The notes under the pieces: model-generated
Databases searched by the model: none
What the model saw: the letters and a program-made list of their open reading frames with translations, nothing else
Told to the model about the DNA's origin: nothing
Made by a program: the position numbers and the translations under genes
Shown here: positions 16,727 to 35,134 of the stretch, piece by piece
Position numbering within the stretch: position 1 is the first letter of the stretch
Layout: the number at the start of each line of letters is the position of its first letter
NCBI GenBank assembly: GCA_003518055.1
Contig: DOZJ01000003.1
Span: forward strand, 2,046 to 66,045
Length of the DNA stretch: 64,000 nucleotides
Reading direction: 5' to 3'
DNA from: Candidatus Falkowbacteria bacterium
GTDB taxonomy: Bacteria > Patescibacteriota > Patescibacteriia > UBA11705

Positions 16727-16819
16727 CCGGGTTGGTACAGTTAAGTATTTTTAGAGCCAAGGTTTTGGCTCTTTTATAATAAAAAAAACAGCTATATTAT
16801 AGCTGAGGCGGTGTTTGGA

Positions 16820-17224: not shown

Positions 17225-17351
17225 CGGCCCTCCTTTGCGCGGTAATATTTTCAACCTGCATTTTTTATAATAAACGATAGGTTAAATGTTGTCAACCCAA
17301 TGAGAATACCATAGTTGTTGTGTAAAATTTCCAATATGTTAAAATTATTCC

Positions 17352-18494: not shown

Positions 18495-18835
18495 TCGTGT
18501 TGGTGGGGTAACAATAACTACCGAAGTTTGGCGGTCGGATGTTGGTTTTTTACAAAAATTAGACAGGGGTAACTGGAATGGCGGAAGTAAAGAGTAAAGA
18601 GCGAATAATAAAAATGGCGTAACTGTAACTACGGAATTAACTGTAACTACGGAAGTTTGGCAAGTCGGTTGGGTTTTTTACAAAAGTATGGCAGCAACAA
18701 TAACTACCCACCTACGCTCTTACTGTGTAGAAAGCTACGGCGCCTGCCTGCCGGTAGGCAGGGGCGCGGCGGAAGTTTGGCGGATGGGGAGGCAAAAGTT
18801 TGGCTATAACAATGAAAGTTTGATGATTTTTTGTA
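18495..18835. repeat. Intergenic repeat cluster (GTAACTGTAACTACGGAAGTTTGGC family). Includes a ~130-nt unit duplicated at 45376-45505
   Basis: Multiple copies of (G)TAACTGTAACTACGGAA(G/T)T, TTTTTACAAAA and GGAAGTTTGGCGG. Positions 18651-18728 are identical over 78 nt to 45376-45453. GC hairpin at CCTGCCTGCCGGTAGGCAGG. Confidence 0.85.
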
Positions 18836-18838
18836 TAT

Positions 18839-19657
18839 ATGAGTCAATTTATCAAAAAAGATTATAAAAATTTGGAGCTGGCCAACCCGCGCAAGATTAA
18901 GGAGGCCGGCCAAAAGAAAAAACAGCTGCTCAAAGCGGTTGGCTGGGTTGGTGTCGCGGGGGTGATTTTGTTGGTGTATTGGTTGTTTTTTTCACCGCAA
19001 TTCAAAATTCAGGAAATAAACATTGGCGGCATAAACAAGATTAGTCGAGATAAGTTTGACAAGATCGTGAACGATTACCGGTATAGCCTCAAATGGTTGA
19101 TATTTTCTCGAAATAACACGCTGATTTTTTCCGAGGCCGGATTGAAGCAGCGGGTCGGTCAGAGTTATTTGCTCGAGAATATCGAGGTGGAAAAGGATTT
19201 TCCGGCTTATGTGGAAATCTGGGTCGAAGAAAAGGATTCAAATATTGTTTGGCTAACCGGTTCAATGTGTTTCAATCTCGATCAAGACGGGATGGCGATT
19301 GAAAATTGTGAAAGTGCGGTTAGAGCTAATATTATTCGAATCAAGGATGATGCGGATAACCCGGTGGCGGTGGGGAAGGGAACGGTTTCTCCAGCTACTT
19401 TGGCTCAAATGATAAAAATTCAGGAGCTGTTGGCTGGGATTGTTAAACCCGATATATTTTATTATCATGTTGATGGGCCATATTCGGTTCGAGTGACAAC
19501 CGAGCAAAATTATGAAGTCTATTTTAATCTTGAAGAGGGGATAGAGCTTCAAGTTGAACGGTTGCGGCTGCTTTTGGCTCAGGAAGAAATACAACAAAAG
19601 TTGCCGCAAATAAAGTACTTTGATTTGCGTTTTGGTGAGAAAATTTATTATCAGTAA
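18839..19657 (+). CDS. ftsQ: FtsQ/DivIB-like cell division protein (POTRA domain)
   Basis: Short cytoplasmic tail, one TM helix, then a POTRA-like start (FKIQEINIGGINKISRDKF). Confidence 0.65.
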   Translation: MSQFIKKDYKNLELANPRKIKEAGQKKKQLLKAVGWVGVAGVILLVYWLFFSPQFKIQEINIGGINKISRDKFDKIVNDYRYSLKWLIFSRNNTLIFSEAGLKQRVGQSYLLENIEVEKDFPAYVEIWVEEKDSNIVWLTGSMCFNLDQDGMAIENCESAVRANIIRIKDDADNPVAVGKGTVSPATLAQMIKIQELLAGIVKPDIFYYHVDGPYSVRVTTEQNYEVYFNLEEGIELQVERLRLLLAQEEIQQKLPQIKYFDLRFGEKIYYQ

Positions 19658-20201: not shown

Positions 20202-21050
20202 TTCTCGATGTGTTTGTTTAAGGATTATGAACCGATGATTGGGTTTATGTAATCACGTTTAATGAGCGTGATTTTTTGTCCTCTATTTTACTCCACTATT
20301 ATTTTACGACACATGATTATTTTAAAGTTAATTTTGAGTGGGAGATGAGTGAAGTTGTGATGAACTAATGAACTAATAATACAAAGAGGGGGAGAAGAGT
20401 ATATTCGAAATAAATAAATTTATCTTTGTTAAATTTAAAATTTAGAATTTTTTTGTGGATAACTCATTTAGACTTTTTATCATTTATTTTGTTGTTGAAT
20501 GTGGTTGTTCTGTACTGATATTAGATAAAATAAGGCTCAAAATCGCGCTATAACGCTTGATTCTCCGCGGTTGATGGTTTGTTACCATAAAATAATAATA
20601 AATATTGATGTATAGTTACGTAATAGCACGTATTTTATAGTTAATTTTGAACGCGACACCCCCCTGATATTTTGGCTAGAATTACAATAAAAATGACCCT
20701 CAAAATTGAGTTGTGTGAGGCGATTCATTTCTTTGTGACTAAGTACATGCGGATAGTATGGAATAAAGTGGAATATAACCATTTGATCGAAAATGAGGTG
20801 TAGTGTCGTAAAAGATATATTTGGCGACACTACATCCGATGTGATTTACTGGCAGCGCGGTGCTGGAATTAGTTGAGCCTCACCGAGTAAATTTGATGAG
20901 GTTGAATGCGGTGCATATGTTTCGTCCCCCATTCTTTCGATTTCAGCGGCGTCTAAAATTTACAGAATTGCAATAGATTATATTTATCAACAGTTCCCCG
21001 TGACGCTATTGGTTATAAGTGTTATAATATAGGTGAAAAAAAACAAAAAT

Positions 21051-23210
21051 ATGCCAAAAATAAATAGTTCAACTTTACGGAAAAGGAAAAAAATCGCAAT
21101 AGCGTCACTTCTATTGTTTTTTGTAGTTTTTGCGAGCGCAGCTTGGATTTTTTTACCCAATGATCCGGCTGAGGCCGCGGCTACAGATATTTTAATCAGT
21201 GAAGTAAGAGTTTCACCAGCTCAAGTTAGCCCAAATTTACAGCCAAATCCATCATACGAAACATGGACATCATCCAGTCAGCTAGAGCCATGGTATGATA
21301 TGAATGAAGATGAGGTCGCGGATGTTGATGAATATTGTGATTTTGACAGCAGTGGAACCAGAAATTCCTATGATAAGGAAATTTTTTCCGGAGGATCAAT
21401 TACGTTAACCCCGCTCGACAAAGATTGTGGTTCCGTCACTGAGGAAACGACAGATGTTTATCACGGAACGTCTGCGGTAAAGATTGTTACCGGTGATAAT
21501 GAGATTGCGACGGTTAAATTTGCTGACGGCTCAAGAACGGATATTGAAGCTGCCACACAATACACTGTGTCTTTTTATGCCAAAGGAAGTATTGGAAATG
21601 AAAGTATATATTTAAAACTTGATCATTTTGATGTCGGGTTTGTGGAACACACGTGGGATTTTGATCTGGAAACATTTGGTGTTAATGATACAATACCAGC
21701 ATCCAGCTCTATGGTTCGCGAATCTATTTTGACCACATCCTGGACGAGATACTCTTATACATTCACCACTGGTGATGAAGCTGGTTTTTTAGATGTTCAA
21801 ATTATATCAGGAGGAACAGGTATAATGTTTGACGGAAGCGCTGATCAATCAAATCAAACATTTTATATTGATGCTCTTCAGGTTGAGGCTGCAGCGTCGG
21901 CTACCAGTTTTATGTCGGCTGACGTGACAAGCGCGACTTTTTTTGAGCTATATAATCCAACAGCCGCGGCGATTGATCTGAATAATTACAATCTGGAATA
22001 TAAATTTGATGCCAATGAATGGGCTGATTTGGCGGTGGTCTCGGAGGCAACCAGTTTGGCGGCCGGTAAACATTATTTGATTAAGGCGTCCGGTGGTGAT
22101 AAAGTGATCGCAAATGAGGCGACATTTAATAGCGCGTATACCACCAACTCAATCACAATCAGCGGAATGGCGCTTCGTGTGTGTTCGAATTCAGCAGATT
22201 GCGCGTCGACCATCAAGGATACAGTTGGACTCGGTGATGCCACGGTTTACGAAGGTACGGCTATGAGCACCACCGGCTGGAATACAGCGAAAAGTTTTGA
22301 GCGTAAAGCCTACTCAACGTCAACGTCCGTGACCATGGCGTCTGGCGGTGCGGATGAGGTGGCCGGCAACGGCTATGATTCCGAGGTAAACAATAGCGAT
22401 TTTGTGTTATTGACTACCCCTGTCCCCCAAGCGATGGCAGCGACGGCGGAAATTTATGTGGCGCCCGTAACAGGCGGCAGCGCGTCAAGCCAGCGAGCGG
22501 CGCAGGAAAATTATGATATTTTATTAGGATTAGACTTGGATGATTCAGGGGCTGAAGACACGGGAGAGGTCCCTCCTGATGATACTACTATTACTGAGGA
22601 AGAATTATTGATTGAAGAAGATAATGTTGAACCGGATGATCAGACGGATGGATCTGATACTGAGGTGATTGAGGAATCGCCGGAAGAATCATTGATACCC
22701 GAATCACCGGTAGAAAAAAATATTATCATGGAACTTGAGGCCTTGAAGGATTTTATCGCAATTAACGGCGTATTACCAAATGCGGATGATTGGGCCGTAA
22801 TTCATTTTTTGAGCTATGATTCATCCGGATTTGAAGGTGTGTCTCTAAATGATCGAGTCGGGTTGATTGAAGACTATTATGATTTATACGGAAGAATGCC
22901 GAATGACGAGGCTGACTGGGAGGTTGTCTTGTCCATGTCAACCGGTGAGAAAACTGAAGTTAAGATTAATGAATTTGAAATCCGAGCGTTGAAAGAATTT
23001 ATCAGCGTCTATGGCCGGTTGGTTGATTTTAGCGTGCCGCAGGAAGAGCGATTTGTCCACATGGTCGCCTATCATCTGAGGCCGATGGAAAGAAATTTGG
23101 TTTTGGAGAATGCCGCGTTGATAAAATTTGTAACGACATACAATCAGATACCGGATACGCCACTTTTATGGTCAGTACTGAGAGCAATTGCTTATGCCGG
23201 CGTTGAATAA
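21051..23210 (+). CDS. Secreted/anchored lamin-tail-domain (LTD) protein with an inserted jelly-roll-like domain and a conserved C-terminal repeat module
   Basis: N-terminal signal/TM. LTD signature is split (DILISEV ... FFELYNPTAAAIDLNNYNL ... SFERK ... GNGYDSEVNNSDF). An acidic linker precedes a C-terminal ~175 aa homologous to the C-terminus of the 2317-aa neighbour. I prefer the ATG at 21051 because TATAAT sits at 21023-21028. The track start is GTG at 21033. Confidence 0.8.
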   Translation: MPKINSSTLRKRKKIAIASLLLFFVVFASAAWIFLPNDPAEAAATDILISEVRVSPAQVSPNLQPNPSYETWTSSSQLEPWYDMNEDEVADVDEYCDFDSSGTRNSYDKEIFSGGSITLTPLDKDCGSVTEETTDVYHGTSAVKIVTGDNEIATVKFADGSRTDIEAATQYTVSFYAKGSIGNESIYLKLDHFDVGFVEHTWDFDLETFGVNDTIPASSSMVRESILTTSWTRYSYTFTTGDEAGFLDVQIISGGTGIMFDGSADQSNQTFYIDALQVEAAASATSFMSADVTSATFFELYNPTAAAIDLNNYNLEYKFDANEWADLAVVSEATSLAAGKHYLIKASGGDKVIANEATFNSAYTTNSITISGMALRVCSNSADCASTIKDTVGLGDATVYEGTAMSTTGWNTAKSFERKAYSTSTSVTMASGGADEVAGNGYDSEVNNSDFVLLTTPVPQAMAATAEIYVAPVTGGSASSQRAAQENYDILLGLDLDDSGAEDTGEVPPDDTTITEEELLIEEDNVEPDDQTDGSDTEVIEESPEESLIPESPVEKNIIMELEALKDFIAINGVLPNADDWAVIHFLSYDSSGFEGVSLNDRVGLIEDYYDLYGRMPNDEADWEVVLSMSTGEKTEVKINEFEIRALKEFISVYGRLVDFSVPQEERFVHMVAYHLRPMERNLVLENAALIKFVTTYNQIPDTPLLWSVLRAIAYAGVE

Positions 23211-23224
23211 AAATTTACAAAAAT

Positions 23225-23249
23225 AAAAAGGGGCTCACTCCCCTTTTTT
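23225..23249 (+). terminator. Rho-independent terminator after the first LTD gene
   Basis: AAAAAGGGG-ctcact-CCCCTTTTTT. Confidence 0.7.
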
Positions 23250-23304
23250 GATATGTTTATTCGCGTTATTGTCAATTAAACTATATGACAGCAAAGAATA
23301 ATAA

Positions 23305-23513
23305 TTAAACTCGGAAATATTGGCTGGAATATTGGTCTTTTTTTATTTTAGCGATGTTTTTATCCACTTGATGATAAAACGCCGGATAATGCTGCCTGAC
23401 AATCATGCGGCCGCGGTATTTTTGATAATATGGCGGTTTTTGGATGTGGGCAATTTCATGAGCGAGGGTTCTGAGTAAAGAATTGATGCTTTTTGGTTTG
23501 TTAAATATAATTT
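23305..23513 (-). pseudogene. Truncated 3' fragment of the HExxH (SprT/DUF45-like) gene found intact at 31002..31400
   Basis: About 190 nt (roughly 23312-23500) are near-identical to 31010-31200. The minus-strand frame reads ...NKPKSINSLLRTLAHEIAHIQKPPYYQKYRGRMIVRQHYPAFYHQVDKNIAKIKKDQYSSQYFRV*. There is a stop and no start codon upstream. Confidence 0.7.
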
Positions 23514-23693
23514 TTTCGTTTTATTTATCCACACATTTAGACTGTGATCAATAAAAGTGCTATAATAAATGCATAAACTAATATGGTATATTTTCATAAA
23601 GCTGAACCAGTTAATTGTGACAAAAGATAACCAATCAAAGGGTGTGTGTCACTCTATGATTTTTGTTAAAGATAACAGTTTTTATATAAATAA

Positions 23694-26600
23694 ATGATTC
23701 ATATGAAAAAAACAAACAGGCGATCGCGTTCGAATCATAATTTGTTGATCGCGTTTTTAATGGTTTTTATTCTTGGCACAACAGGGTATCTAACTTTGAT
23801 AAAACCTTTGGCGGTTAAAGCCGGGACATCGCCGCTTCTTATCAGTGAGGTGAAGTTTACGGGTGAAGTTGGCGGGAATTATGTTGAATTGTATAACCGC
23901 TCTGGCAGTGCCCTGTCAACGGAAGAAAATGTAGGCGTTCAATACAAGTTTCCCAGCGGCGAGTGGACTAATTTACACGTGGCATTCAGTAATGAATCAA
24001 TCCCAGCCAGTGGATTTGTTTTGTTTGGAACAGCGGGCGGTGACTTAGCTTTTGCCGATGAGGCCGCGTTTAATACCGCTATGGCCGCGAATAATAATTC
24101 CATTAACGGACTTAGTTTACGTTTGTGCGCTATATTAAGCAGTTGTGTCGATGGTAATTTGCTTGATGTCGTGGGTTTTGGTTCAAGCTCCACCACTGAA
24201 GGAACCGCAATCAGCCTCACAGATTGGGACCCGAGCAAAAGTTTTGAACGTAAGGCGATTTTTGATTCGACGGTTGGCGCTATGATTGCCGGTGGCGAGG
24301 ATGAAACGGCCGGAAATGGTTTTGATTCCGATGATAATAATTGGGATTTTGTGATGCAATCGACGGGCAATCCGCAAAATTTATCCAGCGCGGTTGAATC
24401 TTTGGATAACGCGGTATTTGAAGATGTTGTTCCCTTTATAGATCATGGACAGGTTTTCAGTTATCATGATAATGCGGATTTGTATTTGTTTGCCGCCATC
24501 TATGATGATAGTAATATTGCAACCACAGGAGCAAAAATATTTTATCGTGTCGGGACCAGCGGTGTTTTTACACAGGCTGACTCAACCAAAACCGTTGGGG
24601 CGTATGATCTGACAGGGTCTGCCTGGTATGCTTTTGTTATTCCCCAAGCAAGTTTGCAAAGCGCTGTTTCCGGGGGCGGAGTAGTCCAGTATTATCTTCA
24701 GGTGACCGATGGCGAAAATACAGCAACAATGCCGGATTACAATCCCAGCACCACGCCATTTAATATTGGCGTGACGGATGACTATGCCGGAGTTAAGTCA
24801 TTTTCCGGGGTGATAACCGATAGTCAGTTGAATTTTGTAAGGGCTTTGGTGCTTATAGAGAATTCAGGGTTTTATGCTGTTTCAAGCGCTGAGAATGGGG
24901 CTTACAGTTTCAGCAGTTTGCCAACTTCATATGAACCTGATGGGGCTTATCGGGTGATAATGGTGGCGCCAAATTATAGCTCTGCAATGGTAAGCGGCAT
25001 GAATGGATCTACGACTGTGAACGCGCAACTGCCGTTGTCATATGGGGATTTCGGTGGCGGAGACTTTGTTGGTCCTTATGTCAACTATACCGCTCCGAAC
25101 GCGGAAATGTTTGGAGCCCCGGTGGCGATATGTAATTTAAATACATCCCCGGAATCTCTGCCTGCCGGAGTAAATTTTTGTTCACCTATAATGGTCGGTT
25201 TTTCTGAAGCAATGAATAGCGGTACGGTTAATACGACAAATGTGAAACTGTACAATTTTACGACCAGCGCTTATGTTGACAATTTAGGGATAACAGCTAC
25301 AGCCCAAGATAATGAGTTTCAGGTTTTTTCCACCACTCCCCTGTCCGTCAATACGACATACGCTTTGATTTTAACCACGGATGTTCGAGATCAAGCGGGA
25401 AATGCTTTGGTGGGAAATCGAAGTGACGGTAGTTATGAAATTACTTTTACGACGGGAGGGGCGGCTTTTACCGGTGGTGGTGGTCAAACCTTCGGTTCCG
25501 GTCAGTTCCAGCCACCGTTTGTGCGAACGGTCAGTCCGAATTCAGGATCTTTTAATATCGCCATGAACGCCAATGTGTTGGTTGATTTTACGACGGCCGT
25601 AAACGTTGAAAGCGCCAACTTGGCTCGGGTTAATTTGGTCGATTTGGATTCGTCTGAGGTTGTGAGCTTGACTCGCACCTACAGCAACGATAAAACAAAA
25701 ATTATTTTAAATCCGAATTCAACTTTATCAGCTAATCAAGACTATGAAATTCGAGTTGCGGGCTCTTTTGAAAGTAGTGTCGGAGTGACGTTGGGAGATC
25801 CGCAAAACAGTCAGAATACGGATGACTACGTTTTCTTCCGCTCGTCGTTTACCACCGGTTCAACTTTAGATTCAACCGGACCGAGAGTTTTGGGCACGCT
25901 TCCGGCATCAGCTCAGACTGATGTGGCTGTGGGTTTGGGTTCGATTGAGATTGGCGTAAGCGAATCTCTTGATGCGGCGACAGTTAATACGTCAAATGTC
26001 ACCTTTAAACGAGGGAGCACGAATATTGCCGCCGATATCGAGTACGATGAAGCGTCTAAAACAATTCGATTGTTCCCTTCCAGCGCGTTGACGGCCAATG
26101 CCAGTCATACTGTAGCCGTCAAAACCGATGTGACTGATATCAATGGCAATGCTTTTAACAGTGATAATGACGGTACAAATGGTGAAGTTGATGATATTTA
26201 TACTTTTCAATTCACGACTTCCAGTACAATTGAAACAACCGCTCCGACGGTAACGAATGTCCGGTGCGATGATTATCAGTGTGTCGTGACATACAGTGAA
26301 GCGATGAATCGAGTGACAGTGACAGATACAACCGATTGGGTTGATAGTGTGGGAAAATGGGAAACCAGCGTCTTGAATAGGCTTAATTATAGTATTTCCG
26401 TTGATAAAGGGGCTGGATTGGCTACCGTGGACATAACAGAAGCGACTTTTAAATATGATGGTAATACCAATAGCGTAATTATATCCAATTTAAGGTTATA
26501 TGAAGATGTGGTTGATCTTAACAATCCGGTTCCATTAACTTTGTCGGTTTATAATGCGGCCGGCCCGGCTGATGGCGTGAGAGATATTGTCGGAAATGTC

Positions 26601-29600
26601 ATTGCCGCTTCAATCAGTATTAGCGGTACAGTTGAATCTAGCGCTCAAACCCAAGGTTTCATCGGGCCGGGCGCGACCGGGTTTGGCACGTCAGGCGTGA
26701 GCGATTTTGGAATGCATAGCGCGGCTACCATGGGCGAGAAACCAATTGGAGTTTTTCCGATGAATTCACTGGCCGGTGTAACCTCTCGCTATTTTGTTGA
26801 TTTGCCTGTGACCACGGTTATTCCGAACGGTGGAAAAATTGAATTAACATTCCCCAATGGATTTGATATTACAAATGCGGTGATTGATACCAACAGTCCG
26901 ATGAATAATGATATATCTCGCGGTTCTTCCACCATGACTTTGTCTTGCGTGGGAACTCAAGCAACGAGAACCATTACCTGTACGACTACCGGTGCTTCTG
27001 ATGCCAATGATTATTTATCTTTTGAATTAAAAACTATAATTAATAGTTCTATTCCCAAAGATTTCAACACTTCAGGTTATACGGTTGATGTTAAAACCAA
27101 GTCGGCTGATGGTTTGACTCTGTTGGAATCAATGACGACCATGCCGTTTTTCGTCACCGCGGCCGGATCCAATTCTATCACGGTCAAAGTTTATGCCGGC
27201 GGTCAGCTCGATGCCACCACCGGTACGGATGATATTGATGATGTAACCATGAATTTGTTTGTCGGTTCCCCCATGACCGGTCCCATGGATCAAACGATTA
27301 CTTTTACTAACGGCTATGCGACAACAACGATCAGTAATTTACCCGCCGGCGAATACTTTGTCTTTACCGAGCCATCAATGACAATTGGCGCCAACGAATA
27401 TGTCGGGGTGTCACCGGAGCAATTTTCACTAAATAACAACGTTACCAAGTCATTTTCGTTGAGTAAAATGGATAATTCAACGGCGGCGCCGCTGACAGTC
27501 AAGATTACCGGGGCCTTTGGCGAGACTGAAGATATTGATATTTTCGCCGGTAGTTCCAAGGGCTTTGTGGTCAAAACAATCAGTGATATCGGGACCGTAA
27601 CAAATCAGTCTTATACATTATATTTGCCTTACAACAGCGATTGGAGTATCGGTCTCGGGCCGGCAATGCCGAAAGGCGCAATCAGCGGTCAAGTCGCCAT
27701 GCCCGATTGGATGCCGCCGAAAAATAAAATGGTTCGAGTGACCGGCGTGGGCGAGACAGTCGCTTTGACCAATATGGAAACGCAGGCTGATGTTACCAGT
27801 GCTGGAGTCTCATTTACGGTGGCCTCTGCCGATTATCAAATTAACGGTTCGGTGGTTGACGGCAATGATCAAGGAATCGCTAACGCGGAGCTGTGGGCTT
27901 ACCAACCAATGGGTTTTGGCGGCAGCGGTAATAACACTCGAGCGACAACCGGCGGCAACTTCTCATTGAAGGTAGCGGAGTATGGAACGTACAAAGTAGG
28001 CGCCTTTTTACCTGGTATTCCCCAATCACCGGAATTAACATTGGAGGTAAAAGTTAACACCGGCGCCATTGATGGTAACGCCTCAGCGGATGTTTATCTA
28101 AACGGGACATTGATAACCGCTGGTAGTCCGTTTAAAATAAAATTAAGGAAAGCTGATTACACCATATCGGGTAAAGTGACGGATTCCAGCAACAATCCAA
28201 TGCAATACGCGCCGATTTGGGCCGAGGAATCCACCACGAAACAGACGGTTAACGCCATGACCGATTCCAGCGGAAATTATGTGCTTTATGTCGGTAATGG
28301 TACTTGGGTTGTCAGATCGGCGGTGCCTTTCGGTTCCAATATTTGCGGCAGTCTGACTAAAACGGTGACAATTTCCAGCGCATCCAAATCCGGTCAAAAT
28401 TTGCAACCATCATCAAGCACTTGTTACACTTTGAGCGGAACCGTGACTATTGGCGGATCGGTTGTTACCGGCGCCCCGGTGTTTATCGATGAATGGTCAG
28501 GGACGCTGGCGAGCGGTAATCCAATCGGGGTTTTTAGAGACTCGCGAACAGATTCCGCAGGACAATATTCGACACGAATTTCGAACGGCACATATCGCGT
28601 TGGGACTTGGTCAGAGGATTATGGCGAGCGGGCTATTTTAGTCACGGTTAATGGCCAGGATTCAACGGCAAATCATATCACTGTAGAGGTGGCTGATTTA
28701 AAAACATTGACCGTTAATTTTACCGGTGGCGCCAGCGACATGACTGGTTTCATGGAGGTGCGGAACGCCACAAGCACTGAACGCCGCGGTCGTCCGATCA
28801 ATGATTTATCGAATGCTGAAATTATTCAAGTTAGCGCCGGGACTTATAATGTATTTGTTCATATTGACGGTGTGGGTGACTTTAGCCAAAGCAGCGTTGA
28901 TTTAACCGCTAACGCCGTTATTACATTCAATGTGTCATCAGTGACTCGATTTGGCATTACAGGCACGGTCGAGGATGTTGATGGCAATCCGATCGAAAGC
29001 GCTTGGGTTTGGGTTCATGATCCAAATAGCAATTATAGAACAGGAGCAGCGACCAACTCGTCTGGCGCTTATACTTTGAGTGTAAAGGAAGGTTCAGGGA
29101 TGAAAATCGGTGTTGATAAACCGAATTATGTCTCCCCTGCCCCCAGAACATTAAACGTCACTGAAGCGGCTACGATAGATTTTACCGACGCTGAGAATGC
29201 CGCTTTGACCGCGACGAATTATGTGGTTTCTGGTACGGTGACGGGAACGAATTTGACTGAGGGTTTTGTGTGGGCGGAAACCGCTACGGGTGGTTGGTCA
29301 GGTAGTCCGATTGATTTGGACGGAACCTTTTCATTGCCGGTGACAAACGGAACGTGGACACTCAAAGGTATTGCTCCGCTTCACGCGCAAACGACCTATA
29401 GTGGTTCGATAACGATTAATAATGACAGTGTAACCGGTTTAAGCTTTCCTTTGACGGTTGATGTCACGAAGACAGTCAAAACGGCCATAAATTCGATTAC
29501 TCCTTCTGTCGGTGGTGTCATTCAAGACGATACGGTAGGGGCAAAAGTCGTAGTACCACCGAATGCTTTAGGCAGCGGATCGACGTCAGGAAATATGACA

Positions 29601-30647
29601 ATGCAAAAATCATATACGGCTCCGGCTACTGGCTTATACGCGCCGTTATCAGGTGAGTCAGTCAATATATCAGTTACCGATAACAATGGTCAGCAGATTA
29701 CCAATTTAAACGATGACGTGGAGTTGACTCTAGATTATTTGACTACAAGTTTACCGAGCGGAATTTCCGAAGGCGATTTGATTCCGGCTTATTGGGATAC
29801 TACAACAAATCAATGGATCCCGCTCAGCGGAGTGCAGAATTCGTCAGACAACTCATTTACAGCTCAAACCAATCACTTTACCATTTTTGGTGTGGTTTAT
29901 TCCCCGCTGTCAGTAACGACAGCATCTGGCAGCAGTCGATCCAGCCAGGAGGCGTCACAAGAGCTTGTTGATTCGATAACCGGTGATGGCTCTGGTAGTT
30001 CGACATCGATTCCGGCGACTGAAGAAACGACAGAGCCGGAAACCGCAGAACCGGAGTTAATACCCGATGAGTCAGTAACGGAAACACCTGAGACGTCCGT
30101 GGAAGCTGAAGAAGAGATGGTGAAAACATATACCCCGGATTTACCGGCAGAGCGTGATTTGGATAATGAACGAGACGCCATAAGTCGATATATCAGTTTG
30201 GAGAAAGAATTACCAACTGGTGATGACTGGAAGGTTGTCCAATTCATCAGCTACGGAAGTACGTCTGTGACTGAAGTTTTGACGACTCGGGAGCGTTCTG
30301 GTTTAGTATCTGATTATAAGGATTTGTACGGCCATTTACCGGTGACCGAGACTGATTGGAAGGATATAGATTTGATTGCTCGCGGTGAACAACCGACCCG
30401 GATTTTGACGCTTGAGGCATCAGCTATCAAGGAATTCGTAATGATTTATGGTCGATTGGTCAATTTTCAGACAGCAGCAGATGAGGATTTTATTCATATG
30501 GTGGCTTATCGCTATCGAGTGGAACAACGCGATTTGGCCAGGGAAAATACGGCTTTGGGCATATTTTCTAAGGCTTATGGTCATCTGCCCAATTCAACCC
30601 ACTTTTGGTCGGTATTGAGAGCTATATCCTATGCTAACGTGGAATAA
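23694..30647 (+). CDS. Giant surface protein (2317 aa): LTD, Ig-like modules, carboxypeptidase-regulatory-like beta-sandwich repeats and a conserved C-terminal repeat module
   Basis: N-terminal TM/signal. LTD motifs are present (LLISEVKFTG...NYVELYNRSG...SFERK...GNGFDSDDNNWDF). Four modules carry the pattern xVxFSEAMxxxTVNxxNV. Five or more repeats look like Y(T/V)(I/L)SG(K/T)VTD...G(N/A)Y(V/T)L.V..G.Y. An acidic Thr/Glu/Pro linker precedes a C-terminal domain shared with 21051..23210. Confidence 0.85.
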   Translation: MIHMKKTNRRSRSNHNLLIAFLMVFILGTTGYLTLIKPLAVKAGTSPLLISEVKFTGEVGGNYVELYNRSGSALSTEENVGVQYKFPSGEWTNLHVAFSNESIPASGFVLFGTAGGDLAFADEAAFNTAMAANNNSINGLSLRLCAILSSCVDGNLLDVVGFGSSSTTEGTAISLTDWDPSKSFERKAIFDSTVGAMIAGGEDETAGNGFDSDDNNWDFVMQSTGNPQNLSSAVESLDNAVFEDVVPFIDHGQVFSYHDNADLYLFAAIYDDSNIATTGAKIFYRVGTSGVFTQADSTKTVGAYDLTGSAWYAFVIPQASLQSAVSGGGVVQYYLQVTDGENTATMPDYNPSTTPFNIGVTDDYAGVKSFSGVITDSQLNFVRALVLIENSGFYAVSSAENGAYSFSSLPTSYEPDGAYRVIMVAPNYSSAMVSGMNGSTTVNAQLPLSYGDFGGGDFVGPYVNYTAPNAEMFGAPVAICNLNTSPESLPAGVNFCSPIMVGFSEAMNSGTVNTTNVKLYNFTTSAYVDNLGITATAQDNEFQVFSTTPLSVNTTYALILTTDVRDQAGNALVGNRSDGSYEITFTTGGAAFTGGGGQTFGSGQFQPPFVRTVSPNSGSFNIAMNANVLVDFTTAVNVESANLARVNLVDLDSSEVVSLTRTYSNDKTKIILNPNSTLSANQDYEIRVAGSFESSVGVTLGDPQNSQNTDDYVFFRSSFTTGSTLDSTGPRVLGTLPASAQTDVAVGLGSIEIGVSESLDAATVNTSNVTFKRGSTNIAADIEYDEASKTIRLFPSSALTANASHTVAVKTDVTDINGNAFNSDNDGTNGEVDDIYTFQFTTSSTIETTAPTVTNVRCDDYQCVVTYSEAMNRVTVTDTTDWVDSVGKWETSVLNRLNYSISVDKGAGLATVDITEATFKYDGNTNSVIISNLRLYEDVVDLNNPVPLTLSVYNAAGPADGVRDIVGNVIAASISISGTVESSAQTQGFIGPGATGFGTSGVSDFGMHSAATMGEKPIGVFPMNSLAGVTSRYFVDLPVTTVIPNGGKIELTFPNGFDITNAVIDTNSPMNNDISRGSSTMTLSCVGTQATRTITCTTTGASDANDYLSFELKTIINSSIPKDFNTSGYTVDVKTKSADGLTLLESMTTMPFFVTAAGSNSITVKVYAGGQLDATTGTDDIDDVTMNLFVGSPMTGPMDQTITFTNGYATTTISNLPAGEYFVFTEPSMTIGANEYVGVSPEQFSLNNNVTKSFSLSKMDNSTAAPLTVKITGAFGETEDIDIFAGSSKGFVVKTISDIGTVTNQSYTLYLPYNSDWSIGLGPAMPKGAISGQVAMPDWMPPKNKMVRVTGVGETVALTNMETQADVTSAGVSFTVASADYQINGSVVDGNDQGIANAELWAYQPMGFGGSGNNTRATTGGNFSLKVAEYGTYKVGAFLPGIPQSPELTLEVKVNTGAIDGNASADVYLNGTLITAGSPFKIKLRKADYTISGKVTDSSNNPMQYAPIWAEESTTKQTVNAMTDSSGNYVLYVGNGTWVVRSAVPFGSNICGSLTKTVTISSASKSGQNLQPSSSTCYTLSGTVTIGGSVVTGAPVFIDEWSGTLASGNPIGVFRDSRTDSAGQYSTRISNGTYRVGTWSEDYGERAILVTVNGQDSTANHITVEVADLKTLTVNFTGGASDMTGFMEVRNATSTERRGRPINDLSNAEIIQVSAGTYNVFVHIDGVGDFSQSSVDLTANAVITFNVSSVTRFGITGTVEDVDGNPIESAWVWVHDPNSNYRTGAATNSSGAYTLSVKEGSGMKIGVDKPNYVSPAPRTLNVTEAATIDFTDAENAALTATNYVVSGTVTGTNLTEGFVWAETATGGWSGSPIDLDGTFSLPVTNGTWTLKGIAPLHAQTTYSGSITINNDSVTGLSFPLTVDVTKTVKTAINSITPSVGGVIQDDTVGAKVVVPPNALGSGSTSGNMTMQKSYTAPATGLYAPLSGESVNISVTDNNGQQITNLNDDVELTLDYLTTSLPSGISEGDLIPAYWDTTTNQWIPLSGVQNSSDNSFTAQTNHFTIFGVVYSPLSVTTASGSSRSSQEASQELVDSITGDGSGSSTSIPATEETTEPETAEPELIPDESVTETPETSVEAEEEMVKTYTPDLPAERDLDNERDAISRYISLEKELPTGDDWKVVQFISYGSTSVTEVLTTRERSGLVSDYKDLYGHLPVTETDWKDIDLIARGEQPTRILTLEASAIKEFVMIYGRLVNFQTAADEDFIHMVAYRYRVEQRDLARENTALGIFSKAYGHLPNSTHFWSVLRAISYANVE

Positions 30648-30752
30648 TTAGATAAGAAAAAAAGGGCTCTTGGCTCTCTTTTTTCTTTGTGGTATACTTT
30701 TTTTAGCTAAGTGAGTCGTGATAATCAGTTTATTAAATTTTGTGATGTAAGT

Positions 30753-30986
30753 ATGTCAATTTTAGAAAAAATATTTTCGAGTAAAAAATTGTTTCAGTAT
30801 TTTGTTTTGGTGGTGGTGACCTTGTTTTTGGTCAATTTGATTTTAACGGTAATATTATTGACAAAAGTTACAACGTTAAGAGGCGCCGTTGATACTTACC
30901 AATCAAAGGAATCGCAAATGTTAAATCAAATTTACGGCCGAACGTGGACGATTCAGGGGGCTTTGGAAACGAAGAACAACAATTAG
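30753..30986 (+). CDS. Small single-TM protein (77 aa)
   Basis: ORF with one strong TM helix (YFVLVVVTLFLVNLILTVILL). The start is uncertain (track start 30711). Confidence 0.4.
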   Translation: MSILEKIFSSKKLFQYFVLVVVTLFLVNLILTVILLTKVTTLRGAVDTYQSKESQMLNQIYGRTWTIQGALETKNNN

Positions 30987-31001
30987 ATATTAACAGATCC
31001 G

Positions 31002-31400
31002 TCACGAGCGAAAATATTGGCTGAAGTACGGATCTTTTTTTATTTTGATGATGTTTTTATCGACTTGATGATAAAACGCCGGATAATGCTGTCTGACAAT
31101 CATGCGGCCGCGGTATTTTTGATAATATGGCGGTTTTTGGATGTGGGCAATTTCATGAGCGAGGGTTCTGAGTAAAGTATTAATGCTTTTGGGTTTATTG
31201 GTCTTTGGTGTCAGGACATCAAGCGCGATAGTCTTTTTTTGGAAATTGATATACCCCAAAATTAATCTCTTGCCGGTTGCTGATTGACGGCGGCTGATGA
31301 TTCGTAGTTTGTATTCATCATAGCCAAAAAGTTTTCTCACGATTTGGTGAAAAATCAACTCGACAAATTCAAGGTAGCGGTCATTTTTGTAGGCTGGCAT
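31002..31400 (-). CDS. Putative zinc metalloprotease-like protein (HExxH; SprT/DUF45-like)
   Basis: 132 aa with an LAHEIAHI motif. Its C-terminal half is duplicated as a fragment at 23305-23513. Confidence 0.55.
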   Translation of the reverse strand: MPAYKNDRYLEFVELIFHQIVRKLFGYDEYKLRIISRRQSATGKRLILGYINFQKKTIALDVLTPKTNKPKSINTLLRTLAHEIAHIQKPPYYQKYRGRMIVRQHYPAFYHQVDKNIIKIKKDPYFSQYFRS

Positions 31401-31449: not shown

Positions 31450-31515
31450 GGCGGGGTAACTCTAACTACAAAAGTTTGGCGGGTTGGGTTAGTTTTTACA
31501 AAAGTTTGGCGAGGT
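31450..31515. repeat. Intergenic repeat copy (GGGGTAACTCTAACTACAAAAGTTTGGCGGG / TTTTTACAAAAGTTTGGCG)
   Basis: Matches the dispersed repeat core by direct reading. Confidence 0.75.
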
Positions 31516-31532: not shown

Positions 31533-32756
31533 TTATGGAAGATACAGCAGCGGATCGACTGGGATACCATTGAGACGGACTTCAAAGTGAAGGTGCGGTC
31601 CGGTGGTCAGGTTGCCGGCGCCGGGTGTCCCAGGGGCGCCGCCGCTTAGGCCAATAACTTCACCTTTGGATACATATTCATCCACAGAGACATAAAGGGC
31701 GCTGACGTGGCCGTAGACGGTCGAGAGGCCATTGGCATGGATTAGAGCAATATAGCTGTACCCCATTCCGGCATCTCGGGCTTTGAGTACATAACCATCG
31801 GCAGAGGCTCTGATCGGAGTGGATTGGGCTGCTCGGATATCGATGGCCGGATGTTCAAAAATATGACGAAAGGGATAAGATTTGTCGTGAAAATAGGCGG
31901 TTACCGTATTTTTTGTTACTGGCCAAATTAGAGTGCTGTCTGTCAGGGCCGGTTGTTCGGTGTCAGTGGCGGCGTCAATTTGTTCTCGTTTAAGTTTTTC
32001 GAGATTATAAATTTCGTTATTGGCCGCTTCTTGTTCTTGTTTGGCCTGCCAGAAAAGATCGTAAAATTTTTGTTCTGACTCTTTGGTGTCAAACAGCAGA
32101 TCATCTTTATAATTGACTTCGCCCGCGAATTCCGCTTGCTGAATTTTTAATTCTTGTTTTAAATCGGTTAATTGCGTGTGTTTTTTGTCCATGTCGGATT
32201 TCTGGGTTTCAAGCTCCCCTTTTAGCCGTTTGATGCTATCAAGGGATTTTTGAAGGTTGTTGGATAATATTTTGGTGTTTTCAAGATGAATGAAAAAATC
32301 CGAGAGTGAATTGTTTAGAACAAAAATTTCTAGCGCGCCGGTGTCGTTTTGATAATGAAGGTGTTTCAGCGTTTCGCCTAACTCCCCTTTTTTCTTGTCG
32401 ATTTCATTCTCATGAGTCAAAATCTGCAATTCTGTTTGCCGGATTTCCAACTCGTTTTTTTTGACTTCTTGCTCGGTGGTCTCAATTTCGAGCTTGGTTT
32501 GGGCGATTTTATTGGTCAGAACGTCAATTTGATTTTGCAGGGATACGGCTTCTTCTTGTTTCTGCTGGATGTTTTTTTTGTAGATAGCTTGTTGCTTTTC
32601 CAATTCTTGAATTTTTTCTTGCGTAGATTTGATTTGGCTGTCGAGGTCATCAACGGTTTGAGCTATGATTGGGAGTCTCGGCAAAAGAAAAAATATACTT
32701 ATAACCGATAAGCCGCCAATCCATTTGATAGATTGTTTGAAATAGGATTTCATCAC
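31533..32756 (-). CDS. M23 family metallopeptidase with a long N-terminal coiled coil (EnvC-like)
   Basis: Signal/TM, about 250 aa of heptad-rich coiled coil, then a C-terminal M23 domain with HxxxD-type and GPHLHFEV motifs. Confidence 0.85.
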   Translation of the reverse strand: MMKSYFKQSIKWIGGLSVISIFFLLPRLPIIAQTVDDLDSQIKSTQEKIQELEKQQAIYKKNIQQKQEEAVSLQNQIDVLTNKIAQTKLEIETTEQEVKKNELEIRQTELQILTHENEIDKKKGELGETLKHLHYQNDTGALEIFVLNNSLSDFFIHLENTKILSNNLQKSLDSIKRLKGELETQKSDMDKKHTQLTDLKQELKIQQAEFAGEVNYKDDLLFDTKESEQKFYDLFWQAKQEQEAANNEIYNLEKLKREQIDAATDTEQPALTDSTLIWPVTKNTVTAYFHDKSYPFRHIFEHPAIDIRAAQSTPIRASADGYVLKARDAGMGYSYIALIHANGLSTVYGHVSALYVSVDEYVSKGEVIGLSGGAPGTPGAGNLTTGPHLHFEVRLNGIPVDPLLYLP

Positions 32757-32826: not shown

Positions 32827-34362
32827 CTATTGTTGACTAAGGTTTAATAGAGCGTGTTTTAACCGGTTAAGGCATTTGGTTTTGCCCAGAACTCCGGCGA
32901 TTTCGAATGGTCCGGGTGATTTTTCCCGGCCGGACAGGGCAACCCGAAGCGGCCAAAGCACATCACCATTTTGAAGGTTGTTGTGATCAATCATGTTTCT
33001 GATTTCTTTTTCGAGTTGGTCGGCGGTAAAGTGATCTTCCGGTGTTTTGATGAGTATTTCAAGGAGATATTGCAGGGCTTGGATGGTGGTGTCTTTGTCC
33101 GATTTTTTAAAAATTAACATTGTCGGATCAAGGTCCAGTTTGGCTGGGAAGACAAATTTGATCGCGTCGGAAATTTCGTTCAGGCGGCGGATGCGATTTT
33201 TTTCCAGCGAACAATAACGTTTAATGTCATTAAAGGTAATTTTTTCTTTGGTTAGCCGGTTGGTGTATTTGTTGTCGCTTTCATCGGTAACTAATTCAGC
33301 TGAGATTAAATAAGGTATACATTCGGTTGTGAATTGATCGTCGGATAAGCCTCGGAGATATACGCCATTGATCCAATCCAATTTTTCCAGATCAAAAACC
33401 GCGCCTTTTTTGTGGACATTATCAAGAGAAAATTGTTTGATCATCTCGTCGCGCGTATAAACTTCTTGTTCAGTCCCCGCGTTCCAGCCGAGCAAAGCAA
33501 TGAAATTTATTAAAGCGTCTTTCAAAAAGCCGGCTTGGATAAAGTCTTTGACGGAGACGTCGCCGTCGCGCTTACTCATTTTCTTTTTATTATTGTTGAG
33601 AATTTGGGGTAGGTGCGCGAAAACCGGAGCCTGCCAACCGAAAGATTCATATAACAAAACATGTTTTGGCGTGCTGGCAATCCATTCATCGCCGCGCATG
33701 ATGTGCGTGATTTTCATCAAGTGGTCGTCAATGATGTTGGCAAAGTGATAGGTCGGGAAACCGTCTGTTTTTACTAAGACAAAATCATCCAGATCTTTGG
33801 TGTTGACTTTGATGGCGCCGCGGATCGTGTCTTCAAATACAACCTCTTTTTCCTCAGGCATTTTGAATCGGATGACAAATGGGGCTTTTTGTTTTAACTT
33901 TTGTGTCACTTCGTCTTTTGATAAATGGCGGCACAAACCATCGTATTTGGGCGGCAGATTATCTTTTTTTTGCTGTTCGCGGAGATCGTCCAAGCGTTCT
34001 TTGGAACAGAAACAATAGTAGGCTTTATTTTTGGCCAGTAAAGTTTTTATGTGTTTTTGGTAAATGTCCAGACGTTCAGATTGAACATAGGGTCCATAGT
34101 CCCCTTTTTGATTGATTTTACCGTTGTCCAGATATGGTCCTTCATCATAGTCTAAACCAGCCCACTCCAAGGTCTGAAGCAGGTCTTCGAGGGCGCCCGG
34201 CACAAACCGCGTGCGGTCGGTGTCTTCGATGCGAACAATAAAGGTGCCGTCTTGATGACGAGCGAAAAGATAGTTGTATAAGATAGTGCGCAGATTGCCG
34301 ATGTGGACATAGCCGGTCGGGCTAGGGGCAATACGGACGCGGATGTTGGTGTTGGTGGGCAT
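32827..34362 (-). CDS. gltX: Glutamyl-tRNA synthetase
   Basis: HIGH-type motif (PSPTGYVHIGNLR) and KMSKS motif (KMSKR). Confidence 0.95.
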   Translation of the reverse strand: MPTNTNIRVRIAPSPTGYVHIGNLRTILYNYLFARHQDGTFIVRIEDTDRTRFVPGALEDLLQTLEWAGLDYDEGPYLDNGKINQKGDYGPYVQSERLDIYQKHIKTLLAKNKAYYCFCSKERLDDLREQQKKDNLPPKYDGLCRHLSKDEVTQKLKQKAPFVIRFKMPEEKEVVFEDTIRGAIKVNTKDLDDFVLVKTDGFPTYHFANIIDDHLMKITHIMRGDEWIASTPKHVLLYESFGWQAPVFAHLPQILNNNKKKMSKRDGDVSVKDFIQAGFLKDALINFIALLGWNAGTEQEVYTRDEMIKQFSLDNVHKKGAVFDLEKLDWINGVYLRGLSDDQFTTECIPYLISAELVTDESDNKYTNRLTKEKITFNDIKRYCSLEKNRIRRLNEISDAIKFVFPAKLDLDPTMLIFKKSDKDTTIQALQYLLEILIKTPEDHFTADQLEKEIRNMIDHNNLQNGDVLWPLRVALSGREKSPGPFEIAGVLGKTKCLNRLKHALLNLSQQ

Positions 34363-34365: not shown

Positions 34366-34582
34366 CTACGAAAGTTAGATTGTCAGATGTGAATTAGGGT
34401 GTAACTATAACTACGGAAGTTTGGCGGGGTAACTGTAACGGCGGAAGTTTGGCGGGGTAACTGTAACTACGGAAGTTAGGCGGGTGTAACTGTAACTACG
34501 GAAGTAACTATAACTACGGAAGTTAGGCGGGGGTAACTGTAACTACGGAAGTAACTGTAACTACGGAAGTTAGGCGGGGTAA
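34366..34582. repeat. Tandem array of about 7 units (21-30 nt) of the dispersed repeat GGGGTAACTGTAACTACGGAAGTT(T/A)GGCGG
   Basis: Units abut one another with no unique spacers. Each contains the internal duplication GTAACT-GTAACTA. Confidence 0.9.
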
Positions 34583-34976: not shown

Positions 34977-35105
34977 ATGGTTTATTATACCATATGGTGA
35001 TAAGTATGGTAAGATAACGGCTGATAAAATAATTATTGTTTGTGTGCGTTAACAGTTAAAAAATACTTATTTTAGCTAAACTTCCGTAGTTATCGTTATA
35101 CCCTA

Positions 35106-35134
35106 TTGACAAATTATAATAAGTATGATATAAT
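35106..35134 (+). promoter_or_regulatory. Perfect sigma70-type promoter P1 (TTGACA-N17-TGaTATAAT)
   Basis: TTGACA at 35106-35111, a 17-nt spacer, an extended -10 TG, and TATAAT at 35129-35134. Confidence 0.7.

Follow-up and report, generated by a model that had tools for sequence, protein, structure and literature searches.

The LTD surface-protein genes and their surroundings

The window, a 64-kb stretch of DNA, comes from an uncultured groundwater bacterium. Two large genes for LTD surface proteins follow each other on its plus strand. The first, g1 (21033..23210, +), encodes 725 aa from a GTG start, or 719 aa from an ATG at 21051, with an N-terminal hydrophobic segment, a jelly-roll/CBM-like domain, an LTD and a 170-aa C-terminal helical-repeat domain. 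Its match to the Pfam LTD model (PF00932, E=1e-7, 32.8 bits) falls just short of the gathering score of 34.3, and precomputed Pfam annotation assigns an LTD to the protein. In addition, it matches Pfam CBM_4_9 (E=4e-5) and, beyond the cut-off, the NCBIfam model GTA_spike_fiber (E=1.4e-11). The second gene, hereafter named the giant gene (23694..30647, +), encodes 2317 aa: an N-terminal hydrophobic segment, an LTD, three Big_5 domains, CarboxypepD_reg repeats and a C-terminal domain of the g1 type. The giant protein has no match to Pfam LTD at E<=0.01, and its LTD is assigned because of 41.6% amino acid identity to the LTD region of g1 over 173 aa.

The two proteins align only in this region and at the C-terminus, where identity is 37.6% over 255 aa and 43% when only the 170-aa domain is counted, as the preliminary description of this DNA had stated. 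At the DNA level, identity is 51% in the LTD region and 54% in the C-terminal region. Local DNA alignment of the genes gave at best a 63-nt match at 75%, and they share no exact word longer than 14 nt; no high-identity tract, and no recent DNA exchange between g1 and the giant gene, was found. The GC content of the giant gene (45-47%, against 42.5% for the window) was considered as a sign of foreign origin and is not distinctive. The gene itself was found on one contig only.

The C-terminal domain common to both proteins is represented in more than 1000 protein clusters at 50% identity. It is widespread, unannotated and covered by no family model. Its fold is predicted with confidence and matches no solved structure. 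A word-indexed protein search with this domain gave a single match, and an exhaustive HMM search proved necessary. We found nothing in the literature on LTD proteins or on this C-terminal domain.

Relatives compared below are CG10_39_11 (hereafter CG10), which is the nearest, RIFOXY (RIF) and L011; a metagenome scan gave none closer than CG10 among the matches listed. The g1 protein is 45% identical to its CG10 orthologue and 44% to the 717-aa RIF orthologue. The giant protein is 59.5% identical over 2296 aa to a 2547-aa CG10 protein and 35% over 1889 aa to a collinear 2890-aa orthologue in L011. Since g1 and the giant gene each have their own orthologue in CG10, the LTD paralogues are older than the split between the window and CG10 lineages; with a short form in RIF and a giant form in L011, this agrees with the old duplication proposed in the preliminary description. 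LTD genes evolve fast, with 45-59% amino acid identity between orthologues, compared with 75-79% for the gltX, M23 and HExxH genes described below.

Several signals lie around these genes. A bidirectional intrinsic-terminator-like hairpin (23225..23248), obtained in a terminator scan of both strands, is located downstream of g1. Upstream of the giant gene, a promoter-like site (TAGACT-17-TATAAT with TG; 23538..23566, +), whose role as a promoter is putative, falls in a part of the spacer conserved with CG10. A second promoter-like site (TTGATG-17-TATAAT) lies at 23483-23511. The giant gene is followed by a terminator-like hairpin (30663..30677, +) and by orf77 (30753..30986, +), which encodes a small predicted membrane protein of 77 aa; CG10 has a conserved copy of orf77 (68%), and RIF and L011 have none. 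We also observed a 20-nt intergenic motif that is specific to this genome and a GC-rich island that is syntenic.

The gltX-M23-HExxH array

Downstream of orf77, on the opposite strand, lies an intact gene of 132 aa containing an HExxH motif (31002..31400, -). It is the last gene of an array that starts, by synteny, with gltX, the gene of glutamyl-tRNA synthetase (32827..34362, -; Pfam tRNA-synt_1c, E=5e-107), and continues with an M23 peptidase gene (31533..32756, -; Pfam Peptidase_M23, E=1e-23) directly upstream of the HExxH gene. The same order, with the HExxH gene downstream of gltX and the M23 peptidase gene, is found in 36 of 47 species-level Patescibacteria loci, and an LTD or C-terminal-domain neighbour in only 3 of 51. 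In the window, orf77 separates the intact HExxH gene from the giant gene, and so the two arrangements of LTD gene and HExxH sequence are not equivalent. Therefore, the "module" of surface protein and HExxH gene put forward in the preliminary description does not hold: the HExxH gene belongs to the gltX-M23 array.

The product is a mini-zincin of the Wss1/SprT type. Its HExxH motif is carried by a helix of a zincin fold, as in these proteases, but its profile scores stay below threshold, both for SprT-like (PF10263; E=0.021, 15.1 bits against 25.6) and for Wss1/WLM (PF08325; E=0.17, 12.4 bits against 26). A profile of the HExxH family had no match among PDB sequences at E<=10. There is no histidine six residues past the second histidine of the motif (HEIAHIQKPPY); the invariant H105 is a candidate for the third zinc ligand of this putative protease. 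The protein has no hydrophobic segment and is probably cytoplasmic. Our literature search returned nothing on bacterial Wss1-like genes adjoining M23 peptidases.

A remnant of the HExxH gene facing g1

A second HExxH sequence lies between g1 and the giant gene (23305..23505, -). It consists of the last 66 codons and the stop codon of the 132-aa gene, with an intact reading frame. Homology runs in register from the stop codons (23305-23307 in the remnant, 31002-31004 in the intact gene) to about 23502 and 31199, and includes an ungapped direct repeat of 191 nt (23312-23502 and 31009-31199) at 92% identity, with blastn E values of about 1e-74 to 1e-77. The remnant retains the LAHEIAHI sequence and terminates at the same codon position as the intact gene. 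An in-frame TAA stands immediately upstream of it, no ATG, GTG or TTG occurs in the remnant 5' of the HExxH motif, and the gene callers of the source assembly predicted no gene there. Its stop codon is 94 nt from that of g1, the two being convergent across the bidirectional terminator. Thus, the 3' fragment and the intact gene of the preliminary description are both present, and the repeat is real, with 92% identity over 191 nt against 51-54% DNA identity in the common domains of the flanking large genes.

These two copies, one fragment and one intact, are the only HExxH-like sequences in the 64-kb window. They are among the longest and closest repeats in the window and form the only high-identity repeat in 19-33 kb. 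A 52-aa plus-strand ORF, antisense to the HExxH frame (23320-23478 and 31017-31175), occurs in each of the two copies and stays open in the CG10 and RIF sequences; it was rejected as a gene, its conservation mirroring that of the sense strand and a stop interrupting it in L011.

Mosaic divergence of the remnant

Overall, the remnant is 89-92% identical to the window's own intact gene and 78% identical to the CG10 gene. However, divergence is distributed very unevenly. In a core of 128 nt (23353..23480, -), only two mismatches, both synonymous, separate the remnant from the intact gene (31050..31177, -), whereas its edges are 18-29% diverged from that gene. At the 3' edge, 13 of 45 positions differ from the window's gene and 13 of 45 from the CG10 orthologue. 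The 5' edge shows 7 of 25 mismatches to each, or 4 of 22 to the window's gene when the first codon, which falls beyond the end of homology, is left out. Hence, the "near-identical" fragment of the preliminary description is near-identical in its core and not at its edges. The change is abrupt: mismatches are 2/128 in the core and 17/67 in the edges (Fisher p=2.7e-7), and 128 nt, the longest stretch with at most two mismatches, was reached in none of 100,000 permutations (p<1e-5). Such a switch between near-identity and older divergence is typical of a gene-conversion tract.

In the same core, the window's gene and the CG10 gene differ at 30 of 128 positions, and the remnant is 98.4% identical to the former and 77% to the latter. 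Informative sites of the core pair the remnant with the window's gene 12 times, the remnant with CG10 never, and the window's gene with CG10 once. The edges offer few such sites (2, 1 and 1 for the same pairings at the 3' edge). Because the edges are equally far from the window's gene and from CG10, the recent event corresponds to a conversion tract of about 128-150 nt within an older remnant. A HExxH event much younger than the LTD duplication, as first described, is thus borne out by the recombination signal, but it was not a simple recent copy. We infer that conversion went from the intact gene to the remnant, with 31050..31177 as the probable donor stretch.

The simplest version of the preliminary description, a single recent copy of all 200 nt whose mismatches cluster at the ends by chance, would account for the overall excess of identity to the window's own gene. 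It is nevertheless very improbable, since the clustering is far beyond chance, the remnant edges are no nearer to the window's gene than to CG10, and no mechanism is evident by which a 200-nt piece of a nearby gene would land at precisely the ancestral site and in the ancestral orientation. It is scarcely credible that the remnant arose by assembly, through a chimeric path in a region of shared k-mers. Metagenome assemblies can mix strains, and the remnant locus is present in one assembly only (JGI Ga0103682_10000014); three other assemblies are 100% identical on the side of the intact gene, and their sequence stops short of the remnant. But the junction at 23503 lies outside any repeat, where a de Bruijn graph has no shared path, the diverged edges exclude one sequence used twice, and the g1-giant adjacency is seen independently in three CG10 assemblies.

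The contrast between core and edges could also suggest that the remnant is kept for a function, as a recombination handle through which the population loses and regains the 7.7-kb giant-gene cassette, as a trans-antisense RNA, with g1 read-through RNA carrying about 190 nt complementary to the HExxH mRNA, or as part of the giant-gene promoter. Indeed, the promoter-like site at 23483-23511 straddles the remnant junction. In addition, about half of the apparently fragment-specific changes are synonymous, so that they are not obviously dominated by non-synonymous ones; this gives a hint of constraint from tiny counts, polarised unreliably at such divergence. A retained function is distinctly unlikely, however. 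Synonymous sites of the functional gene are saturated between the window and CG10, with third positions about 0.5 identical where the residue is the same. Two differences in the core, compared with 30 to CG10, thus point to a copy made recently and not to constraint over a long time. Of the two promoter candidates, the better one (23538-23566) is not part of the remnant. Rfam gave no family at gathering score over the whole window, and only two sub-threshold matches in 20.2-31.6 kb. Finally, the HExxH protein is alone in its 90%-identity cluster, so that no hybrid protein of the deletion type is on record, and CG10 has the same gene pair with no remnant. The remnant at 23305-23505 thus appears to be a non-functional scar.

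Origin of the remnant

RIF has its intact HExxH gene opposite the g1 orthologue, across a 65-nt spacer with a terminator, in the same position and orientation as the remnant. In L011, the intact gene faces the giant orthologue in a convergent arrangement like that of remnant and g1. The hairpin at 23225..23248 matches the position of the terminator between LTD gene and intact HExxH gene in both relatives. The remnant therefore keeps the ancestral position and orientation relative to g1, as expected of a tandem-duplication scar. In CG10, the 201-nt spacer between g1 and the giant gene contains only short AT-rich matches to the HExxH sequence (blastn and local alignment with shuffled controls, p=0.01-0.07), and it aligns to 23509-23587 of the window, reaching the remnant junction. 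Since CG10 shares both the adjacency and the spacer, the g1-giant adjacency predates the window/CG10 split.

The best explanation, with a probability of about 0.6, is an old rearrangement scar that was kept recognisable, and recently refreshed, by ectopic gene conversion from the intact HExxH gene, and that the CG10 lineage deleted. The HExxH gene would once have directly faced g1 across the shared terminator, and the remnant would be its 3' third. A rearrangement with one breakpoint near HExxH codon 66-67, possibly a tandem duplication of a unit made up of the LTD gene, the terminator and the 3' part of HExxH, or an insertion to the same effect, would then have put the giant gene between g1 and the intact HExxH copy before the split from the CG10_39_11 lineage, with orf77 arriving together with the giant gene or later. 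Ectopic, presumably RecA-dependent, conversion from the intact copy 7.7 kb downstream would have followed, its latest tract covering at least 128 nt (23353-23480), and the CG10 lineage would have lost the remnant by deletion. This reading carries two demands. The first is one more event at least, since orf77 separates the giant gene from HExxH but has no counterpart between g1 and the remnant. The second concerns age: a neutral remnant from before the window/CG10 split would be expected to have reached saturation, so edges of about 71-75% identity need earlier rounds of conversion or a younger origin. Homology upstream of g1 (20202-21060), expected of a tandem duplication, was not found against 23491-23720 (score 28, null mean 24, p=0.12); the age of the event could have erased it.

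A rival reading is re-insertion after the split. The Jukes-Cantor (JC) distance of the remnant edges, about 0.37, is easier to reconcile with an origin no earlier than the window/CG10 split than with a far greater age. An ancestor with the RIF-like arrangement would have taken up a "giant-orf77-HExxH" block from a related strain. Homology in HExxH/M23 would have anchored one end of the block, and the other end would have come in at codon 66-67 by an illegitimate joint, as in homology-facilitated illegitimate recombination. In this case, the remnant would be the tail of the recipient's own gene, and the mosaic would reflect donor/recipient divergence and the crossover point. The topology is exactly what one-sided homologous integration leaves, and gene content at this convergent junction differs among relatives. 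We nevertheless regard this as unlikely: CG10 has the g1-giant adjacency and a homologous spacer up to the junction, and a single crossover predicts one divergence switch, whereas the remnant is diverged, near-identical and diverged again.

Under the conversion reading, the giant gene and orf77 are flanked by direct repeats, the remnant and the intact gene. A single crossover between these repeats would remove the 7.7-kb cassette and leave a RIFOXY-like "g1 facing HExxH" arrangement. That RIF has this predicted product would also suit the recombination handle. It is a long shot that the cassette is in fact excised and re-inserted by homologous recombination. Were this so, it would act as a presence/absence switch for the 2317-aa surface protein in the population, recurrent conversion would preserve the ability of the repeats to recombine, and RIFOXY would carry the product of an excision that became fixed.

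Discussion

Candidate Phyla Radiation organisms have been seen only through metagenomes, and how they recombine is difficult to follow. This locus offers a clean, datable ectopic gene conversion in such a genome, a result of modest importance that also corrects a tempting misreading, in which the HExxH gene is counted as belonging to a surface-protein module. The convergent junction where the gltX-M23-HExxH array meets the alr-ftsQ cluster is a site of gain, loss and remodelling of very fast-evolving surface-protein genes in Falkowbacteria. Two side observations may matter more for genome annotation, namely the C-terminal domain and the Wss1-like mini-protease fixed beside the M23 peptidase gene.

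Wss1, SprT (Spartan) and minigluzincin proteases are the closest relatives of the HExxH gene. Unlike Wss1 and SprT, its product is below profile thresholds and has 132 aa with no accessory domains, and in Patescibacteria the gene has a fixed place after an M23 peptidase gene.

Truncated duplicates arise at the borders of tandem duplications, of Campbell-type integrations and of homology-facilitated illegitimate recombination. Here too, partial-gene direct repeats flank extra DNA, one being complete and the other cut at the breakpoint. However, the region examined contains no mobile-element genes, att-like sites or integrase near the locus, and the event is old, with the repeat secondarily homogenised.

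In silent-cassette antigenic variation (Neisseria pilS to pilE, Borrelia vls, Mycoplasma genitalium MgPa repeats), several donor cassettes hold partial silent copies of a surface gene. The locus resembles these systems in having a truncated, promoter-less copy near surface-protein genes and a conversion tract between copies. In contrast to them, the truncated copy derives from a small protease gene and not from the surface-protein genes, there is one copy and no cassette bank, and the two LTD genes have no common tract above 75% identity. The ongoing surface-antigen diversification by recombination suggested in the preliminary description is therefore not supported, the converted sequence coming from a gene that encodes no surface protein. 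What is left of the idea is the fast evolution of the LTD genes and the differing gene content at the junction.

The closest parallel is ectopic (non-allelic) gene conversion in bacterial chromosomes, where a gene recombines with a duplicate or incomplete copy of itself, as in the concerted evolution of tufA and tufB in Salmonella. Direct copies a few kb apart, a sharply bounded near-identical tract flanked by older divergence and a presumed dependence on RecA are common features. Unlike the tufA/tufB type, one partner here is a dead 3' fragment, probably the recipient, and conversion creates no variation in an expressed gene and brings no evident benefit. Overall, this is bacterial gene conversion of an ordinary kind in a tidy form, and the locus is no switching system for surface antigens.

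A start-less HExxH gene copy behind the short LTD gene

The 132-aa HExxH protein encoded in the window (31002-31400, minus strand) is 100% identical to a Candidatus Falkowbacteria MAG protein (locus tag DF272_03565), and JGI contig Ga0103682_10000014 (173.7 kb) is a 100% match to the window, whose GC content is 42.5%. The source organism is therefore a member of the Candidate Phyla Radiation/Patescibacteria. A start-less copy of the last 66 codons and stop codon of the HExxH gene (23305-23505, minus strand; hereafter named the remnant) lies between two genes for lamin tail domain (LTD) surface proteins: the short g1 (21033-23210, plus strand; 725 aa from GTG, 719 aa from ATG) and the giant gene (23694-30647, plus strand; 2317 aa). 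Positions 23312-23502 and 31009-31199 form an ungapped direct repeat of 191 nt with 92% identity (blastn, E ~1e-74), and in-register homology of remnant and intact gene runs from the stop codon (23305-23307 and 31002-31004) to around 23502 and 31199. The remnant, which reads ...NKPKSINSLLRTLAHEIAHIQKPPYYQKYRGRMIVRQHYPAFYHQVDKNIAKIKKDQYSSQYFRV* on the minus strand, preserves the frame of these 66 codons and shares the position of its stop codon with the intact gene. Immediately upstream of the remnant there is an in-frame TAA, and no ATG, GTG or TTG was found ahead of its HExxH motif.

The remnant is positioned 94 nt from the g1 stop codon and is convergent with g1, with a bidirectional terminator (23225-23248) in between. 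Its orientation and position toward g1 are those of the intact HExxH gene in the RIFOXY relatives. Such a placement is as expected of a scar, and a random insertion is hard to reconcile with it. The remnant is covered by a single assembly, while ~0.9-1.1 kb around the intact gene are confirmed at 100% identity by three other assemblies. Misassembly is nonetheless unlikely, because the junction at 23503 falls outside any repeat, the edges of the remnant differ in sequence from the intact gene, and the g1-giant adjacency is found again in three assemblies of the relative CG10_39_11 (hereafter CG10).

Mosaic identity of the remnant

The remnant was aligned codon by codon with the intact gene of the window and the orthologues of the two nearest relatives. 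In a core of 128 nt (23353-23480, matching 31050-31177), remnant and window gene differ at only 2 positions, both synonymous, whereas each of them differs from the CG10 gene at 30/128. In the 3' edge (45 nt), remnant and window gene show 13 mismatches, as do remnant and CG10, as compared to 9 between window gene and CG10; in the 5' edge (25 nt), the corresponding values are 7 (4/22 without the first codon), 7 and 4. The difference between core and edges is significant (Fisher's test, p = 2.7e-7), and none of 100,000 random placements of the 22 mismatches gave a 128-nt stretch with at most two of them. Within the core, 12 informative sites group the remnant with the window gene and none with CG10. 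Informative sites are few in the edges, and those of the 3' edge are split 2, 1 and 1 among the three possible groupings. A near-identical core between diverged edges, with sites grouping with the window gene, points to a recent tract of ~128-150 nt within an older copy, a classic gene-conversion signature as judged from these alignments.

Silent sites are saturated between the window and CG10, such that a neutral remnant predating their split should be beyond recognition. As the edges still retain ~71-75% identity, the remnant must either have been converted in previous rounds as well or have originated somewhat later, with at least two time layers in both cases.

The two LTD forms are old and fast-evolving

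g1 and giant can be aligned in two regions only, the LTD region (41.6% amino acid identity over 173 aa) and a C-terminal domain (43% over 170 aa), with codon-aligned DNA identities of 51% and 54%, respectively. Third-position identity is ~0.5 in both regions, even where the residues are identical, hence silent sites are saturated. No DNA tract exceeds 63 nt at 75% identity. The sharp contrast between the HExxH segment (92% over 191 nt) and the large genes, pointed out in the preliminary description, is thus correct.

In CG10 (Falkowbacteria; HExxH protein 76% identical), the locus contains, in this order, a g1-like gene (704 aa), a giant (2547 aa), a 77-aa gene named orf77 and the HExxH gene, which the M23 peptidase gene and gltX precede. 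In RIFOXYD2_FULL_35_9 and RIFOXYC2_FULL_36_12 (HExxH 64%), a lone 717-aa LTD gene, with alanine racemase and ftsQ on its other side, directly faces an intact HExxH gene across a 65-nt spacer containing a terminator. At a further locus, L011 (HExxH 60%), one 2890-aa giant faces the HExxH gene directly. Orthologues of g1 are the CG10 g1-like protein (45%) and the 717-aa protein (44% over the full length, 61-63% in the LTD region), whereas the window giant corresponds to the CG10 giant (59.5% over 2296 aa), and the L011 giant is collinear with the giants of CG10 (33%/2603 aa) and the window (35%/1889 aa). Since each form has its own orthologues, both are older than the radiation of these lineages, as had been proposed for the duplication, and where a lineage has a single LTD gene, the other has been lost from the locus.

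LTD orthologues are only 45% and 59.5% identical, as compared to 75-79% for gltX, M23 and HExxH, and the LTD genes thus evolve fast. Domains are gained and lost: a CBM-like domain ahead of the LTD is retained in the CG10 giant, as in g1, and lost from the window giant. The gene content of the junction also varies among relatives. Residues 134-300 of g1 (21432-21932), a jelly-roll domain, match NCBIfam NF048003 ‘phage head spike fiber domain’ (GTA_spike_fiber) above cut-off (E=1.4e-11) and, weakly, CBM_4_9.

The 201-nt g1-giant spacer of CG10 is not significantly similar to any HExxH gene. Part of the spacer aligns to window positions 23509-23587, reaching the inner junction of the remnant, and the terminator and g1 stop follow directly; the window therefore carries an additional block of ~260 nt that includes the remnant. 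orf77 (30753-30986, plus strand), which CG10 shares (68%) but the RIFOXY relatives and L011 lack, is a small predicted membrane protein gene located between the terminator of giant and the HExxH stop codon, with a promoter-like site of its own (30670-30698).

The C-terminal domain and the HExxH family

A profile built from the two window copies of the C-terminal domain matched 1162 representatives of 50%-identity clusters, 963 of them at E<=1e-10. The matched proteins range from 120 to 3508 aa, with the domain almost always at their very C-terminal end. Among the best 149 representatives, 105 start with an N-terminal hydrophobic segment. Its only Pfam match was sub-threshold (pseudomurein-binding repeat, E = 6e-4), and NCBIfam gave none. 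We suggest that it is a putative domain for attaching secreted Patescibacteria proteins to the cell envelope. The L011 giant (10393-19062, minus strand) carries one and a half copies, an extension also seen in several database proteins.

Relatives of the HExxH gene were surveyed at 51 species-level Patescibacteria loci, 47 of which had enough sequence. In 36/47, an M23 peptidase gene is found in the same orientation at most 1.5 kb upstream; gltX usually precedes it, and ftsQ is often convergent from the opposite side. A convergent neighbour with the C-terminal domain of the LTD proteins occurs at only 3/51 loci, which argues against the HExxH gene being part of an LTD module, as first described. 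H82, E83, H86 and H105 are invariant. The family stays below every Pfam and NCBIfam threshold (SprT-like 15.1 bits, WLM 12.4 bits), and its profile found no matches among PDB sequences. The most fitting description of its product is that of a Wss1/SprT-like mini-zincin travelling with an M23 peptidase.

Intergenic repeats and a GC-rich island

A 20-nt intergenic motif, GTAACTGTAACTACGGAAGT, often followed by TTGGCGG, is present in 15 copies at up to 2 mismatches (0 expected), at 18508-18656, 31456-31475, 34401-34570, 35080-35227 and 45183-45261. Fourteen copies are on the plus strand regardless of the orientation of neighbouring genes, and seven are in tandem upstream of gltX. The motif was not found in CG10, the RIFOXY relatives and the other loci compared. 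A second repeat of 134 nt (18650-18783 and 45375-45505; 95.5% identity) includes a GC-rich hairpin and lies next to copies of the motif. Also upstream of gltX, a GC-rich island (~35500-37000) reaches 60-70% GC in a 42% GC genome; the syntenic position in CG10, the RIFOXY relatives, L011 and another relative's locus, L012, has 58-71% GC, against 37-44% for the loci overall. Both strands carry long open ORFs, and a 386-aa plus-strand frame is weakly conserved with CG10. The island has no match in Pfam or Rfam and no homologue by word-indexed search.

A gene remnant probably refreshed by gene conversion

The most likely history would start from an LTD gene facing HExxH, with a terminator common to both. 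Before the split of the window and CG10 lineages, a rearrangement that broke HExxH near codon 66-67 would have brought in a second LTD gene, separating the first from a complete copy of HExxH, while the 3' third of HExxH stayed behind g1. A tandem duplication comprising the LTD gene, the terminator and the HExxH 3' part could account for this, as could an integration with the same outcome. orf77 would then have come to sit after giant, which requires one additional event. The remnant would have been deleted in the CG10 lineage and, in that of the window, repeatedly overwritten through ectopic gene conversion, with the intact gene at a distance of 7.7 kb as the donor and 23353-23480 as the latest tract. 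Transfer from the intact gene to the remnant is the probable direction because the common core encodes the most conserved residues of the family. One weak point of this history is that a simple tandem duplication predicts homology upstream of g1 and giant, and none was detectable (p = 0.12).

Remnant and intact gene are direct repeats flanking giant and orf77. A single crossover in the 128-nt core would delete this cassette and restore a RIFOXY-like arrangement, in which HExxH would be complete, though hybrid. No hybrid protein is on record, the 90%-identity cluster of the HExxH protein having one member, which is weak negative evidence.

The preliminary description had proposed recent recombination at the HExxH gene and, with it, a site of surface-antigen diversification. 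The observation itself holds, and its interpretation is supported in part, including the recent recombination of the HExxH segment. However, DNA comparison of g1 and giant gave no trace of recent recombination between them, and the converted sequence is part of a gene for a small protease that lacks any hydrophobic segment. The locus does not constitute an antigenic-variation system of the cassette type; what it holds is best read as a gene remnant that conversion has refreshed, a fresh instance of an already known phenomenon.
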